From positions 96,001-160,000 of the forward strand of contig CAWHHI010000012.1 in assembly GCA_963829055.1 (NCBI GenBank): a stretch of 64,000 nucleotides of DNA. The letters run 5' to 3'. This stretch comes from an uncultured Gemmatimonadaceae bacterium. GTDB taxonomy: Bacteria > Gemmatimonadota > Gemmatimonadetes > Gemmatimonadales > Gemmatimonadaceae. Every line of letters starts with the position of its first letter. The first letter of the stretch is position 1. Shown here piece after piece: positions 39,228 to 45,431 of this stretch. Position numbers and translations under genes: made by a program. The notes below the pieces were generated by a model. It was not told where the DNA came from and ran no database searches. It worked only from the letters and a program-made list of their open reading frames with translations.

Positions 39228-39339
39228 ACGGGGGTTTGAACGTGCTGGGTGCTGGGTGGTAATGCTGGTGGCTGGGTGACGCTGGATGCCGAGCTGCGAG
39301 CCCAGTTGGCCGAACACGGCGCGACGTTTTCATTTCCGA

Positions 39340-40230
39340 GTGCCTCGTCCAAGTCCCCCACCCCAGTCGCCAGTCCCCGCACCCTTGCTCTTGGGCGCCC
39401 ACACATCCATTGCTGGGGGCACCCACGAAGCCCCGCCCCGCGCCAAGGCCATTGGCGCGACCGCGATGCAGATCTTCACGAAGATGGCGAACCGGTGGGC
39501 CGAGCGTGAATGCGAGGCACCTGAGCTCGATCTCTTTCGCTCGGCCCTCGCGGATACCGACCTCCGCGCGCTGAACGCGCACGATAGCTATCTCATCAAC
39601 CTCGCGTCGCCAGACGAGGTCCTGCGCGCCAGATCCATCGAGTCGTTCGTCTGCGAGCTCCGCCGCTCGCAGGCGTTAGGCCTGGGCGCCCTCGTGTCGC
39701 ACCCCGGCAACTACATGGACGAGCGCGCCAGCGGGGTCGCGCGCAACGCTGACGCCATCACTCAAGCGCTGACGTGCGTGCCGGGGCCGCTCAAGCTCTT
39801 GCTCGAGACCACCGCCGGGAGCGGCACCGCGCTCGGCGCGACGTTCGAGGAGTTGGCCGAGATCATCGCGCGCGTACCGGAGCCGCTCCGCCAGCGAGTC
39901 GGCGTCTGCATCGACACCGCGCACATTTTCGGCGCCGGCTACGATCTCGCGAATGCGTACGACGACGTCATCGCGCGATTCGACGCTACGGTTGGGCTCG
40001 ACCGGCTCGGCGCCATGCACCTGAACGACTCGAAGGTTCCGCTCGGGTCGCGCCGCGATCGCCATGAGCTCATTGGCGAGGGTGCGATCGGCGAGGGTGC
40101 CTTTCGACGCATCATGACGGACGACCGCCTCACTGCAGTGCCCAAGCTGATCGAGACCCCGAAGCTCGATGATCCCGAGACGACCGACCGTCGCATGCTC
40201 GAACGCTTGCGCGGGTACGCCAGTGGCTGA
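39340..40230 (+). CDS. nfo: Endonuclease IV
   Basis: GAHTSIAGG, HDSYLINLAS, HPG, LLETTAG, CIDTAH, HLNDSK, RDRHE, ETP. Confidence 0.95.
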   Translation: MPRPSPPPQSPVPAPLLLGAHTSIAGGTHEAPPRAKAIGATAMQIFTKMANRWAERECEAPELDLFRSALADTDLRALNAHDSYLINLASPDEVLRARSIESFVCELRRSQALGLGALVSHPGNYMDERASGVARNADAITQALTCVPGPLKLLLETTAGSGTALGATFEELAEIIARVPEPLRQRVGVCIDTAHIFGAGYDLANAYDDVIARFDATVGLDRLGAMHLNDSKVPLGSRRDRHELIGEGAIGEGAFRRIMTDDRLTAVPKLIETPKLDDPETTDRRMLERLRGYASG

Positions 40231-40318
40231 CCACGGGATGCGCGTCCAGCGACAGCCTGTTTCATCACATGGACCGGTGGCCGTGGCATCAGTGGCGCCC
40301 ACCGGATAACGTTTGTTC

Positions 40319-40666
40319 ATGCGCCGAACGACGGGCCTCATGCGAGCGCTGTGGCGGGTCACGATCCTGCTGCAACTCCTGCTGCCGACTTTCGTGTCCA
40401 TTGCGGACGCGAAGGCCGAGCGCGACGCTATGAGCGCGCGCGCCTATTCGCACGTCGAGGCGACAACTGGCAAGGACTGCGCGCGTGCTCACAAGCCGGA
40501 CTGCGCGCTCTGCCAGCATCTCACGACACCCATAGCGAAGGCGGCCAAGCCAGCGCCGCCGCTGTACGCGGCGCGGTGCGCGCCGCCCGCCGTCGAGCGC
40601 AGTGTTGTTCCGGTAACAGCGAGATCGCCGCGACCTACCCTCCCGCGCGCGCCGCCACAGAACTGA
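40319..40666 (+). CDS. DUF2946/CruR-like small protein with signal segment, CxxC and C-terminal RAPP
   Basis: Hydrophobic N-terminus, HKPDCALCQH, ...PRAPPQN*. Confidence 0.7.
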   Translation: MRRTTGLMRALWRVTILLQLLLPTFVSIADAKAERDAMSARAYSHVEATTGKDCARAHKPDCALCQHLTTPIAKAAKPAPPLYAARCAPPAVERSVVPVTARSPRPTLPRAPPQN

Positions 40667-40788
40667 GCGCATCGCACCGCCCGGTGCGACGGTACCGAAC
40701 ATTCGGACCACTCCGCCCCCGAAATCGCACGGCCTAACGCGCCGTGTGGCCGTCGGGAGGCTCACCGCGCTCAGGAGCATTGCTCAAC

Positions 40789-42124
40789 ATGAGATTCTTT
40801 CCCGCGCCACTGGCGCGCGCCCCTGGCATCCGCGCGATGCTCTGGGCGGCAGTTGTCCTGCTTGCCGCCATTGCTGGGGCGGCGAACGCGCAGCAACGCG
40901 ATTCGACGCGCCGCACGCCGCGAGACTCGGTTCGCGCCGATAGTGCACGCGTCGCGGATTCGATCGCCGTCGTTCGCGAGCTGGAACGGTTGCAGAACGA
41001 ACCAAAGACGCCGAGTCCTGCGCAGCAACCCGGCCAGGGTGGTCCCACCAACGCGCGCCTCCTTCCCGATATCAGCGCGGTCGGCGACCTCGTGGCCGAC
41101 CTGTCGCCGAAAGGCAGCACGCAGGAAGGCGGTGAGCGGTTCGCGATTCGCGAGGTCGAAGTCGCGATCCAGGCCGCCGTCGATCCGTATTTCCGCGGCG
41201 ACATTTTCCTCGGGATCTCGGATCTCGAAAAGATCTCGATCGAGCAGGCCTACCTCACTGCCACATCGCTGCCGTGGGGCCTCGAGGTCCGACTCGGCCG
41301 CTATCTGATGCCGGTCGGCAAGCAGAACACGACGCACCGGCACGACCTGCACACGGTCGACTACCCGTACGTCATCCAGCGCTTCTTCGGTGAGGAGGGG
41401 CTCAAGGGGACAGGCGTGTACGCGTCCAGGATCTTCGCCCCGTTCGGCTTCTACCAGGAAGCTCATCGTCACGGCGGTCGACCGCTTCGGCGAGGCGCCC
41501 GAGGGACTCACAACCGTCGATCCGGTCAACAAGCAGCTCAGCGGCCTCGGTTACTCGGCGCGACTCCGCAACTACTGGGACCTCAACGAGGCGAGCAACG
41601 TCGAGCTGTCGTTTTCCGGAATTACCGGGAAGCGCGAGCAGCCCGTGTTAGGCGACGACCGCATCTCTTGCGACGCCGGCTCGGCAGAGCGTGCTCGGGG
41701 CGGACTTCACGTATCGCTGGCGTCCGCTCCAGCAGGGGCTCTACAAGTCGTTCATCCTGCAGGCCGAGTTCATGCAGCAGCTGAACGAGAGCGATCCGCG
41801 TCTCGATTGCTGCCCGATGATGTCTCGTCGGCCGATGTGACTGTATGGCGGGCCCACTCGCGACTTCTCCGGCGCGTATGCGTTCGCGCGCTATCAGCTC
41901 ACGCGGCGCGGGTTCCTCGGCGCCCGCTTCGACACGTTCCAGGATGAACCGCCGAAGGGCGAACGTCGACGGCGGTTTCGGGGTACCTGGAGTTCTTCCC
42001 GAGTGAGTTCTCGAAGCTGGTGGCCGGTTACGAGCGGTACTCGCCGGCACAGGGCGCCGCGACCAATCGCATCCTCCTGCAGGCTACGTTCGCGCTCGGA
42101 CCTCACAAGCCGCACCCATTCTGA
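40789..42124 (+). CDS. Outer-membrane beta-barrel protein associated with metal ABC uptake (frameshifted)
   Basis: Signal peptide; PDISAVGD, EVEVAIQAAVDPY, EQAY, NTTHRHD, C-terminal GPHKPHPF. Confidence 0.7.
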
Positions 42125-42158
42125 CATTGTCGGCGCCGCTGGCGCCCAGGAGTATTTG

Positions 42159-43089
42159 ATGGGAACCCATCGACTGTTCACCACGCTCGCGTTGGCCACG
42201 GCGCTCCTGTCGCCGGCACCTGTCGTCGGGGTGTCGACGGCCTCAGCGCAGCTCAAGGTCGTAACCAGCACGACCGACCTGTACGACATTGCCAAGCAGG
42301 TCGGCGGGAACAAGATCACCGCGACACACATTGGCGAGGGATATCAGGACCCGCACTTCATCGAAGCGAAGCCGAGCTTCGTCCTGCAGCTGCGAGACGC
42401 CGACGTCTGGGCGTTCGTCGGACTCGATCTCGAGATCGGGTGGATGCCACTGCTCCTGCAGGGCGCGCGCAACCCGAAGTTGCAGCCCGGAAAGCCGGGC
42501 TACGTCGACGCATCGCGCGTGATCACGGTCCTCGACATGGCGCGGGGCAACGTCGACCGCAGCCAGGGCGACGTGCACCCGTTAGGCAACCCGCACTACT
42601 GGCTCGACCCGGAGAACGGTCGCCGCATCGCCAAGCTGTTCCGCGAGACGTTCTCGCAGCTCGACGCCAAGAATGCGTCGACGTACGCCGCGAACGCAGA
42701 AGGCGTTCACACAGCGGCTCGACGCCGCGGAGCAGAGCTGGAAAGCGGACCTCGCGAAGATCAAGGGACAGCCGGTCGTCGCCTGGCACACGAGCTGGCG
42801 CTACTTCGCCGAGTATACCGGGATGAACATCGTCGGCTTCATGGAACCGAAGCCGGGCGTTCCGCCGTCGCCGTCGCATCTCGCGGGGCTGATTCAGACG
42901 ATGAAGCAGACGGGCGCCAAGGTGATCGTGATGGAACCGTTCTACGATCGCAAGACGGCGGATTTCGTGGCGAGCAAGACCGGGGCAAAGGTGCTGGTGC
43001 TGCCCCCATCGGTCGGCGGAACGAAAGGGCTCGACGACTACATCCAGCTCATGACGAACGACATTCACCAGCTCGCGGCCGCGCTCTGA
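42159..43089 (+). CDS. Zn/Mn ABC transporter substrate-binding protein (ZnuA/TroA cluster)
   Basis: QDPHF, GLDLEIGW, GDVHPLGNPHYWLDP, WHTSWRYF, EPKPGVPPSPSH. Confidence 0.92.
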
Positions 43090-43090
43090 C

Positions 43091-43870
43091 ATGACCATCG
43101 CTCGTCACCTTCGACCGCGCGACGCTCGGCTACGGACGTCGCGCGGTGCTCACCGACATCTCCTTCGACATTCCCGGAAGGGGACTTTCTCGGCCTCGTC
43201 GGACCTAACGGCGCCGGCAAGACCACGATCCTTCGCGCGCTCCTCGGGAGCCTCACGCCGCTCAGCGGGACCGTGTCGCGCGCGCCCGACGCTCCGTTTC
43301 GGTTACGTCCCGCAGCGCGATCAGGTCGACTACAACTTTCCCGCTCAAGGTTCTCGACGTCGTGCATGATGGGACGCTACGACCGCATCGGCCTCGGTCG
43401 CCGCCCCACGGAAGACGACCGGCGGCGCGCGCACGAGGCGCTCGAGCACGTCGGCATCGACCGACTGGCCGATCATCCGCTCGCCGATCTGTCCGGTGGT
43501 CAGAAACAGCGCACGCTCATCGCTCGCGCGCTCGTCGGCGAGCCTAACGTGCTCGTGCTCGATGAGCCGACGAACGGCATGGATCTCGTCGCGACGACGC
43601 AGATCCTCGGGCTCGTGCGCGAGCTGCACGACCGTGACGGCCTCACGGTGCTCATGGTCAGTCACGCACTGAACGAAGTCGCCAACTACGTGGAGCGCAT
43701 CGCGCTCGTCGTCGAGGGCGGATTTCGCATCGGTACGACAGACGAGATCATGACCGAGGAGGCGCTCAGCCAGATGTACGGGATCCCGGTCGAGGTCGAC
43801 TCGTTCGCACGGCCATCGCATCGTCGTCGCGCGTCGTGCCGGCGCCGAACCGGTTACCGACCATGTTTAG
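43091..43870 (+). CDS. Metal ABC transporter ATP-binding protein (ZnuC-like); end approximate
   Basis: GPNGAGKTT, GYVPQ, LSGGQKQR, LDEPTNG, VSHAL. Confidence 0.9.
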
Positions 43871-44696
43871 CACTGTCCTTCTCTTTCGCGAAGCGCTCTA
43901 CGGCGCGCTCGTGATCGCGCTCGCGTGCTCGGTCCTCGGCGTGTACGTCGTGCTGCGGCGGATCGTATTCGTCGGCGCTGCCCTCGCGCAGATCTCGTCG
44001 GCGGGCATTGCGCTCGCGCTCTGGCTTGCCGGGGCGGGTATTGCGTTAGGCGCGATCGGTCATCCCACGGTGGTTTCGCTCCTGCTGACGCTCGTCGCCG
44101 TACTGTTCTTCGCTGGCGGCGACACGCGGCCGCATTCCGCCCGACGCGACGATCGGCGTCACATACGCCGTCGCGGCCGCGCGTCGGCATCATTCTCATC
44201 GCCAAAGCGGCGTCAGGCGAAGCGCACGACATCTTCCTCTCGCGGCAACATCCTCGGCATCACGCGGAGCGACACGCTCGTGCTGCTCGCGGTCGCGGTG
44301 CCGGTGCTCGCGCTCCACCTCGTGTTCTACAAGGAGCTGCTGTTCGTCTCGTTCGACCGCGAGACGGCGCGCACGCTTGGCTACAACGTGCGGCGGTGGG
44401 ACCTGCTGCTCTATCTCACGCTCGGGCGTCGTGATCGCGTCCGCGATGCAGTTCGCCGGCGTGATGCTCGTGTTCAATTTCCTCGTGCTGCCGGCGGTGA
44501 CCGGCCTGCTGCTCTCTCACACCATGCGCGGCGTGTTCTTCTGGTCGGTAGCGTCCGCGCTCGTCGCCGCGTGTCGTCGGCTTCTCGCTGTCGGTCCCGT
44601 TCGACCTGCCGTCGGGACCCGCGATATCCGCCGCGTCGGGCGTCCTGGTGCTGCTCGCGTGGGCCGGACGGAGGATCATCGCCCGAAGCTGAGTGA
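43863..44696 (+). CDS. Metal ABC transporter permease (ZnuB-like)
   Basis: LGVYVVLRRIVFVGAALAQ, GNIL, YKELLFVSFD, LVLPA. Confidence 0.9.
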   Translation: MFSTVLLFREALYGALVIALACSVLGVYVVLRRIVFVGAALAQISSAGIALALWLAGAGIALGAIGHPTVVSLLLTLVAVLFFAGGDTRPHSARRDDRRHIRRRGRASASFSSPKRRQAKRTTSSSRGNILGITRSDTLVLLAVAVPVLALHLVFYKELLFVSFDRETARTLGYNVRRWDLLLYLTLGRRDRVRDAVRRRDARVQFPRAAGGDRPAALSHHARRVLLVGSVRARRRVSSASRCRSRSTCRRDPRYPPRRASWCCSRGPDGGSSPEAE

Positions 44697-44763
44697 TCGC
44701 TGACCATGGAGCGGCGGGCCAGGCCGCTGGTCGCCGTGGGCCTCAGCGGCATACCTTCCGCGC

Positions 44764-45431
44764 ATGTCACGGGTGAGGGTCATCACCGAGCGCGACGTCC
44801 GACGCGCCGCGAAAGACGGGACGCGCGAGCTCGATGCCGCCGGCGCCGTCGTCACGCCGAGCGCGAAGGACGTCGCCGCTCGGGTTGGAGTAACGCTCAA
44901 AGTCTCGAAGTCGGCGTCGATGCGCACCCGTCACCGCGACAGGTTCGCGCCGAGCCGAAGTCGCGGCTCCGCGCCAGGCGAACCGTTGCCGTCGGAGCGG
45001 ATCACGGCGGCGCGACGCTCAAGGATGCCGTCATCGATCGCCTGCGCGAGATCGGACACGACGTCACCGATCTCGGCACGAGTGGCACCGCCGCCGTCGA
45101 CTACCCTGATTACGCGATCGCCGTCGCGCGGGCGGTTGCGGGCGGCGCCGCGCAGGTCGGCATCATGGTCGACGGCGCCGGCATCGGCAGTTGCATGGCC
45201 GCGAACAAGATCGCTGGCGCCCGCGCGGCGATGTGTTACGACGTGACGACGGCGCAGAACGCGCGCGAGCACAATAACGCGAACGTGCTCACGCTCGGCG
45301 GTGGCCTCATCGGACCACGACTCGCGCTCGCGATCGTCGAGACCTTCCTCTCCACGCCGTTCGGTGGCGGCCGGCACGCAACGCGCGTTGCGAAGATCGA
45401 CGCACTCGACGCGCCGCGGGCTCAGCGTTAG
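44764..45431 (+). CDS. rpiB: Ribose-5-phosphate isomerase B with N-terminal extension (frameshift in linker)
   Basis: GADHGG, DYPD, DGAGIGS.MAANK, AREHNNANVL, F.GGRH..RV.KI. Confidence 0.9.

Follow-up and report, generated by a model that had tools for sequence, protein, structure and literature searches.

Known arrest leaders and the locus in Gemmatimonadota

The systems closest to the element analyzed here are leader peptides that stall the ribosome translating them. In Bordetella pertussis, the RAPP motif of CruR (Bp2923, DUF2946/PF11162) arrests in vitro with a mapped toeprint (PMC12992588), and adding five residues to the spacing broke regulation (PMC9426467). The export signal is dispensable in CruR (PMC9426467) and essential in CutF of Rhodobacter capsulatus (10.1101/2025.02.05.636593), an exported leader with a Cys motif whose stalled ribosome opens a stem over the next Shine-Dalgarno (SD) sequence (10.1101/2022.11.11.516240 = PMC9973294; 10.1101/2025.02.05.636593). 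ApdA, ApdP, and SecM (RAPP/RAGP) monitor protein export and precede sec or yidC genes (PMC10951233, PMC10987492). Our subject is a predicted leader of this kind, a 115-codon open reading frame (ORF) in front of a porin gene and genes for a ZnuACB-like ATP-binding cassette (ABC) importer. It lies in a 64,000-nucleotide stretch of DNA (the window, whose positions are used below) from an uncultured Gemmatimonadaceae bacterium (assembly GCA_963829055.1, contig CAWHHI010000012.1, positions 96,001 to 160,000, forward strand).

Like CruR, this leader comes first in a metal-import operon and has a predicted export signal, CxxC, and RAPP a few residues from its end; the spacing is 44 residues here and 45 in CruR, a long GC-rich spacer follows, and the stall is predicted to switch the operon on. 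It differs from CruR in scoring below the Pfam cut-off, in its extra His and Cys residues (HVE, C54, H58, and H67), in its cargo (a porin with ZnuACB instead of a copper TonB receptor), in a predicted helix over the SD (anti-SD helix) where Rho termination has been demonstrated for CruR, and in its lineage and metal, which is probably zinc. The opening of a stem by the stalled ribosome would be shared with CutF; however, CutF combines a CxxxC with a polyproline motif, stalls in response to copper, and turns on a detoxifying oxidase, so the opposite metal polarity is expected for a RAPP leader of an importer. The best reading of polarity and RNA route is CruR polarity with the CutF RNA mechanism. 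The RAPP motif, short tail, and N-terminal export signal are also found in ApdA, ApdP, and SecM, which lack this His/Cys cluster (PMC10951233, PMC10987492).

We lean slightly toward the following reading as a whole. The operon would be transcribed from a leaderless promoter at the leader ATG. When metal, probably zinc, is scarce, the ribosome would stall at the leader RAPP and unpair the helix that hides the porin SD, which would allow translation of the importer operon. Once metal occupies the His/Cys cluster, cotranslational folding would, by analogy with CruR, pull the chain and free the stall; termination would follow three codons later, the helix would re-form, and porin initiation would be off. 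As the cluster lies 44 to 65 residues before RAPP, it would sit just outside the exit tunnel.

The general idea of metal-sensing arrest leaders before such cargo is already anticipated in print. In the 4B source table of PMC12992588, at least nine rows are upstream ORFs (uORFs) with His/CxxC and RAPP before genes of ~400 to 500 aa; these genes bear the Atlas name of the neighbors of our porin, and one uORF is annotated as DUF2946. The TonB-related class of that paper presumably absorbs these rows. Its main text contains neither "zinc" nor "Gemmatimonad" and does not discuss the porin identity, the ZnuACB link, the anti-SD, or a missing Zur, and the supplement of PMC9426467 (229,043 characters) contains no ZnuA, ABC-3, zinc, or Gemmatimonad. 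CutF-like leaders, not all of them copper-specific, precede OEP/RND pumps and TonB receptors (10.1101/2022.11.11.516240). The DUF2946 family is treated as copper-linked (PMC12914433; 10.1101/072470), and a DUF2946 gene with a Zur-box-like sequence precedes czrCBA in Caulobacter (PMC4176598). A literature search, with subscription papers outside its scope, returned no zinc-responsive RAPP leader and no description of zinc regulation in Gemmatimonadota. The leader described here probably extends the CruR/CutF kind to a new cargo, lineage, and probable metal; new at this locus are the plugless porin, the tested anti-SD, the predicted leaderless start, the genus without detected Fur or Zur, and the pairing of importer and pump. 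The supplement of PMC12992588 also holds many short actinobacterial RAPP uORFs before TraR/DksA C4 zinc-finger genes (17 of 26 "zinc" rows among the matches listed), which are unrelated to this locus.

Conservation of the leader

The 115-codon ORF is a real, conserved gene of the Gemmatimonadota. A search with the solute-binding protein (SBP) of the operon gave matches in 33 of 61 genomes, and the loci of 31 of the 32 other genomes were examined. One of these (L061), with a different SBP and no porin, was set aside; among the remaining 30 loci, a RAPP-ending leader directly precedes the porin in 28, the exceptions being L052 and L057. An independent scan anchored on the porin yielded 79 loci, 70 of them with sufficient upstream DNA and 5 in common with the SBP-anchored set, and found the leader at 63 of the 70, compared with 1 of 57 control windows. 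Genome tallies here and below (33/61; 44/61; 158/201) include G013, whose loci were left out of the locus sets. Two of the seven porins without a leader stand near TonB-receptor genes, one directly after such a gene and one back to back with a leader-headed receptor.

Conservation of RAPP and CxxC among syntenic loci had been proposed as a check in the initial annotation, and it bears out the leader. The 63 porin-anchored leaders comprise 60 with RAPP, 2 with RGPP, and 1 with RSPP; 61 carry H-x2-5-C and 53 retain CxxC, so the second Cys is not universal. In 33 aligned leaders, the only invariant residues are H58, C62, R110, P112, and P113. The distance from CxxC to RAPP is 42 to 46 residues in 53 orthologs and 43 or 44 in 46 of them. 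The hydrophobic N terminus and the H..DCALC.H motif first noticed in the ORF are both there, with residues 58 to 67 reading H-K-P-D-C-A-L-C-Q-H; the PRAPP described as terminal is also present, but Q-N precedes the stop codon, which places RAPP two residues from the end. Single-Cys leaders (H-x-x-x-C or H-x-H-L-L-C) that keep RAPP and the spacing occur at L049, L058, and L059 and at class-level loci such as L106, L109, and L117.

Across 131 leaders, RAPP is encoded with all six Arg codons and all four Pro codons, so the constraint acts on the protein. The combination is also rare: the rule "CxxC, 38 to 50 aa, R[AGS]PP, at most 10 aa, stop" had 6 matches in 109,810 genome frames, the 2 with RAPP both belonging to the leader family, which argues that the motif does not arise by chance. 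DUF2946 is the best Pfam family for the leader, in line with the initial assignment, and the match spans nearly the whole model; at 15.9 bits (E 0.023) it nevertheless falls short of the gathering cut-off of 23.7. Among the 33 aligned relatives, 15 match DUF2946 at E ≤ 0.1 (best 1.7e-5), and DUF2946 is found on 13% of members of an Atlas neighbor cluster. By these scores, the leader is DUF2946-like and not a formal DUF2946 member. The conserved Cys and His residues, RAPP, and the spacing of 44 uphold the predicted assignment to CruR-like arrest leaders, and we think it very probable that the leader arrests the ribosome at RAPP.

The ORF could instead encode an exported metal-binding helper, with RAPP causing only a constitutive pause during which the porin SD stays open, as might be read from the presence of an export-like segment and as many as six His/Cys residues. 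An AlphaFold model (pTM 0.31) has a confident helix at residues 6 to 40, leaves the mature part mostly unstructured, and includes no folded metal site, so that it gives no guide to the ligands. The linker between the His/Cys motif and RAPP is free in sequence and fixed in length, and the gene stands first in front of unrelated cargos (see below). Together, these features fit a cis-acting ruler, and we regard the helper as very improbable.

Predicted coupling of the leader to the porin gene

The ORF, spacer, barrel gene, and znuACB-like genes follow one another as initially described; the spacer, put at about 120 bp, measures 122 nt and ends at the porin ATG at 40789. The fold of 40625 to 40805 beats all 200 shuffles (z -3.66). 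In it, 40663 to 40670, across the leader stop codon, pairs with 40767 to 40774, and the remainder of the porin SD sits in a small hairpin. Both spacer hairpins seen at the outset appear in this fold; the main helix overlapping the SD had been missed, and the coupling probably runs through that helix rather than through the two hairpins. A similar SD-sequestering helix across the leader end is reportedly present in SecM/secA. In seven genus sequences, the helix is 93.6% paired, versus 18 to 48% for slid controls, with the tested structure derived from the fold of the window's genome (G000), which favors that genome's structure; one double change in the helix separates G000 from four other genus genomes.

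Pairing between leader tail and SD is specific to the locus. Cognate duplexes score -16.6 kcal/mol versus -11.9 for non-cognate ones in 50 porin loci, and -15.2 versus -12.7 kcal/mol in 41 further de-duplicated loci (permutation p 0.0002 each, overstated since kin are non-independent). A ribosome covers its mRNA to +15, and this was used to model the footprint of a stalled ribosome. With P112 placed in the P site as in the CruR toeprint (PMC12992588), the footprint lowers the median SD opening cost from 8.65 to 3.25 kcal/mol in the 50 porin loci, with a fall of at least 2 kcal/mol in 36 and a rise in none. The effect is smaller in the 41 further loci (7.05 to 4.80; a fall of that size in 22 and a rise in none), and at the window locus the cost drops from 6.5 to 3.8 kcal/mol. 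We consider control through the anti-SD helix likely.

In an alternative that has the CruR precedent in its favor (PMC9426467), the stall would act chiefly by preventing Rho-dependent termination within the 122-nt spacer, and the helix would be secondary. C exceeds G by 0.12 to 0.15 around RAPP in all four cargo classes, compared with ~0 further upstream, and by up to 35 C to 21 G per 78 nt at the 3' end of the leader here; no intrinsic terminator was found in 40100 to 40900. However, Pro and Ala codons and the pyrimidines of the anti-SD would also be expected to produce a C excess, the spacer has a high degree of structure, Rho would need neither cognate-specific pairing nor compensatory changes, and both routes can coexist with helix control. 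Termination as the main route therefore appears improbable to us, and opening of the porin SD by the stalled ribosome remains the preferred route.

No sigma-70 -35/-10 pair was found in 40100 to 40900 either. A TANNNT element lies 5 to 9 nt before the candidate start in 57 of 126 leaders, in none of the 126 downstream genes, and before 0.9% of random ATG/GTG codons; this -10-like element suggests that the leader transcript is leaderless, starting at the leader ATG. Neither Cu nor Zn has a known riboswitch (PMC9426467), and an Rfam scan of 40000 to 45000 (E ≤ 1) had 0 matches, so no known riboswitch is present there.

A predicted plugless porin, a zinc-type importer, and no detected Zur

The intact barrel ortholog of genome G001 (444 aa) was modeled with 16 strands and no plug (pLDDT 66, N-terminal 92 residues unresolved), and its listed fold matches are general and specific porins and channels, all plugless. 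The barrel matched no TonB family in Pfam or NCBIfam, and no family of either database at all. A TonB-dependent receptor (22 strands plus plug) was rejected on its length, strand number, and plugless fold matches, in agreement with the non-TonB barrel of the initial annotation. Conserved features of the porin are an N-x-x-H-x-H loop and a His-bearing C-terminal G-x-H-x-x motif. Nearby Atlas clusters are automatically named TonB-dependent or zinc-regulated receptor, and our results suggest that "zinc-regulated TonB-dependent receptor" annotations in this family denote plugless porins instead.

The SBP aligns His/His/His with entry 1pq4 and lacks the Glu and Asp of entry 4k3v, which we take to be Synechocystis ZnuA and Staphylococcus aureus MntC, respectively. 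The three His ligands are present in 29 of 29 loci, with S, N, Q, H, or M and never Asp at the fourth site. Of the Zn/Mn importer first proposed, the cluster A-I ABC assignment thus stands with a zinc-type SBP, and the manganese type was rejected for lack of its Glu/Asp ligands. The SBP gene is the sole ZnuA-family gene found in the genome, which also has a ZIP-family gene. In the more distant loci L041 to L060, porin, SBP, and ABC-3 permease genes occur with no ATPase gene between or adjoining; an ATPase gene is found only in loci of the L031-L040 type.

By pattern matching, we found no Zur-, Fur-, or DtxR-like box upstream of any of the 131 leaders, including this one, which agrees with the early remark that no Zur box was apparent. 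No Fur-family protein (PF01475) was found in G000 and six genus genomes (G000 to G006; 77 to 92% complete). Overall, 44 of 61 genomes have a Fur-family match at E ≤ 0.001, 39 of them above the cut-off. A profile of Fur-family proteins from 18 relatives reached a best E of 0.028 in G000, with no tblastn match, and where relatives carry fur (G000:C16:1173800-1176600) the contig is continuous with other sequence. Weak FUR matches (~E 1e-4) in some relatives were rejected as not Fur; those of G039 and G041 look PadR-type by eye. With no box, and no zur found in these genomes, the operon does not appear to belong to a Zur regulon. For each of 14 Fur-family proteins taken from relatives, the top-scoring model was Fur or PerR, never Zur; as none reached the cut-off and second copies in G024 and G016 have no assignment, a divergent Zur may exist somewhere in the phylum.

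Manganese has its own regulator, a DtxR/MntR-type gene at G000:C8:63388 that adjoins an NRAMP-like gene (identity by reading the sequence). This separate regulation, the three-His SBP, TonB cargo that leans toward ZnuD, and CzcA-type pump cargo (see below) all point to zinc, and we judge it somewhat better than an even bet that zinc is the releasing signal. A leader gating the sole ZnuA-type importer in a genus without detectable Fur or Zur would be a clean test case for nascent-peptide zinc sensing.

One leader family in front of importers, receptors, and pumps

The leader profile matches 158 of 201 phylum genomes. We surveyed 104 loci, made up of four genus paralogs and 100 loci from the 150 matches listed (out of a total of 202), and classed the first downstream gene of each. 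TonB receptors of group 1 account for 40, TolC-like genes with CzcB/CzcA-type partners for 24, porins for 22 (one truncated; L133 and L169 assigned by their C termini), TonB receptors of group 2 for 17, and another gene for 1. ZnuD is the best or second-best NCBIfam model in four of four group 1 receptors tested, with all scores far under the family cut-off. G000 itself has exactly two clear leader-family members, the present one and a His-rich CxxC/RAPP leader (L062, G000:C20:301001-300597, minus strand) heading a TolC-like/CzcB/CzcA-type (CzcCBA-type) operon, which is also found in three of five genus genomes searched (orthologs L181 to L183). In this efflux paralog, the spacer is ~170 nt long and conserved among members of the genus; neither an SD nor an anti-SD is clear in it, and leader and operon may therefore be coupled in another way. 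Many loci with ZnuD-like receptors have a small acidic or His-rich lipoprotein-like gene after the receptor (L106, L108, L109, L117, L119, and L126). Leader-headed units (porin, TonB receptor, or pump) are paired within 2 to 10 kb at L052, L054, and L055 and in G114, G124, G135, G197, G221, and G038, forming metal-homeostasis islands.

Several results weigh against the reading in which low metal stalls the leader and turns the importer on. The same leader family also stands before CzcCBA-type efflux operons, at 24 of 104 loci and in some cases as the same cassette, which is awkward for a simple rule that metal turns it off. L155 (G017, efflux) and L169 (G088, porin), from different genomes of one genus, form a sister pair of leaders whose switch RNAs are nearly identical; the two loci have in common the leader, the spacer, the anti-SD/SD pair, and the first, signal-peptide codons of the cargo. 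At the efflux loci, the footprint lowers the SD opening cost from 6.55 to 4.25 on average (11 of 24 fall and 3 rise). Efflux leaders were considered as having the opposite RNA polarity, which is unsupported, as stalling on average opens the SD there too; for the four efflux loci of genus g1, whose starts are uncertain, no footprint effect is predicted. Metal identity and polarity are the weak links, as the RNA logic predicted for efflux-linked leaders is no different. Besides the low ZnuD scores, ZnuD matches are missing from one of the two TonB cargo groups, 10 of 63 leaders lack the second Cys, and no leader directly precedes the porin at 7 of 70 loci. On the RNA side, non-independent kin inflate the significance of the pairing test, start codons in the duplex and opening tests were picked by SD strength, 4 bp of the helix outlast the modeled footprint at this locus (minimum-energy fold), and the C-over-G excess also fits Rho control.

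A rival reading is a stalling leader of the same build that answers another cue, such as Ni, Co, or Cu, thiol redox, export state, or a CutF-like metal-induced stall. Leaders have moved among the cargo types (porin, the two TonB groups, and CzcCBA), with 33 label changes on the leader tree, where labels cluster yet change often; this is a quick tree with 63 of 128 inner branches open, used for the sister pairs and the label-change count. Both characterized relatives sense copper (PMC9426467; 10.1101/2022.11.11.516240), His-only CutF-like clusters accompany Ni/Co genes (10.1101/2022.11.11.516240), and three-His SBPs are generally known not to be strictly zinc-specific. The cargo set nevertheless points to zinc and speaks against copper. 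In 103 of 104 loci the first gene falls in four classes, none of which is a copper chaperone, an oxidase, or a CusA-type pump. It would make little sense for an importer to be induced by excess metal, and this leader groups with uptake-linked leaders apart from the efflux paralog of its genome, on weakly resolved branches. Another cue is thus unlikely in our estimate, and a stall at low metal, probably zinc, is still the reading we prefer.

More broadly, Gemmatimonadota might manage zinc homeostasis without Zur through a modular arrest cassette (leaderless promoter, His/Cys sensor, RAPP, and anti-SD) swapped before porin-ZnuA(C)B importers, ZnuD-like receptors, and CzcCBA-type pumps, a tentative generalization that we doubt more than we believe. 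If true, a protein-coded zinc switch would replace a transcription factor phylum-wide, with importer and pump under one sensor family in a single genome. A sharp question is what determines, within one sensor family, which metal is sensed and whether the response is on or off; it can be tested because the same genome holds both an importer-linked and a pump-linked leader, and because sister cassettes have been swapped between these cargos.

Features and assembly of the locus

The features of the locus are collected in Table 1. The genome of the window (G000) is a 7.8-Mb assembly that is 86% complete. All four cargo genes are frameshifted in it, and the operon could have decayed so that the leader now controls nothing. 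However, a neighboring malic enzyme gene and other unrelated neighbors are broken likewise, the frames of the genus orthologs are intact, in-frame segments of the cargo genes are 77 to 94% identical to those orthologs, and the leader and helix are intact. Given the broken malic enzyme gene and the intact orthologs, the frameshifts are most likely assembly errors, and a decayed operon is hardly credible; intact orthologs were used wherever a whole cargo protein was required.

Table 1. Positions of the leader, its RNA elements, and the downstream genes in the window
Feature	Positions	Strand	Basis or remark
-10-like element TANNNT	40307-40312	+	6 nt before leader ATG, predicted
Leader ORF, 115 aa, DUF2946/CruR-like	40319-40666	+	signal/transmembrane segment, His/Cys motif, low-complexity linker, RAPP, 2-residue tail
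Hydrophobic segment, residues 11-29 (predicted signal peptide or membrane anchor)	40349-40405	+	mean Kyte-Doolittle 1.69
Putative metal site H45 (HVE), C54, H58, C62-x-x-C65, H67	40451-40519	+	conservation of H58/C62 among leaders
RAPP codons R110-P113, predicted stall with P112 in P site	40646-40657	+	register from CruR toeprint (PMC12992588)
5' arm of SD-sequestering helix, across leader stop codon	40663-40670	+	fold
Hairpin 1 of spacer, 7 bp + 4-nt loop	40672-40689	+	fold; 100% paired in genus, 3 pairs with double changes
Hairpin 2 of spacer, inner part of longer stem	40726-40748	+	fold; poorly conserved sequence
3' arm of helix and overlapping porin SD	40767-40777	+	fold
Outer-membrane porin, no plug, predicted 16 strands	40789-42124	+	model of intact G001 ortholog; frameshifted here
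Cluster A-I SBP, ZnuA-family, three His ligands	42159-43089	+	one frameshift
ABC ATPase, ZnuC/AztA-like	43091-43870	+	frameshifted; end approximate
ABC-3 permease, ZnuB-like	43863-44696	+	frameshifted; end approximate

Directly upstream of the leader, at 39286 to 40230, lies an endonuclease IV (nfo)-like gene, as in many orthologous loci across the order; enzymes of this family use zinc.

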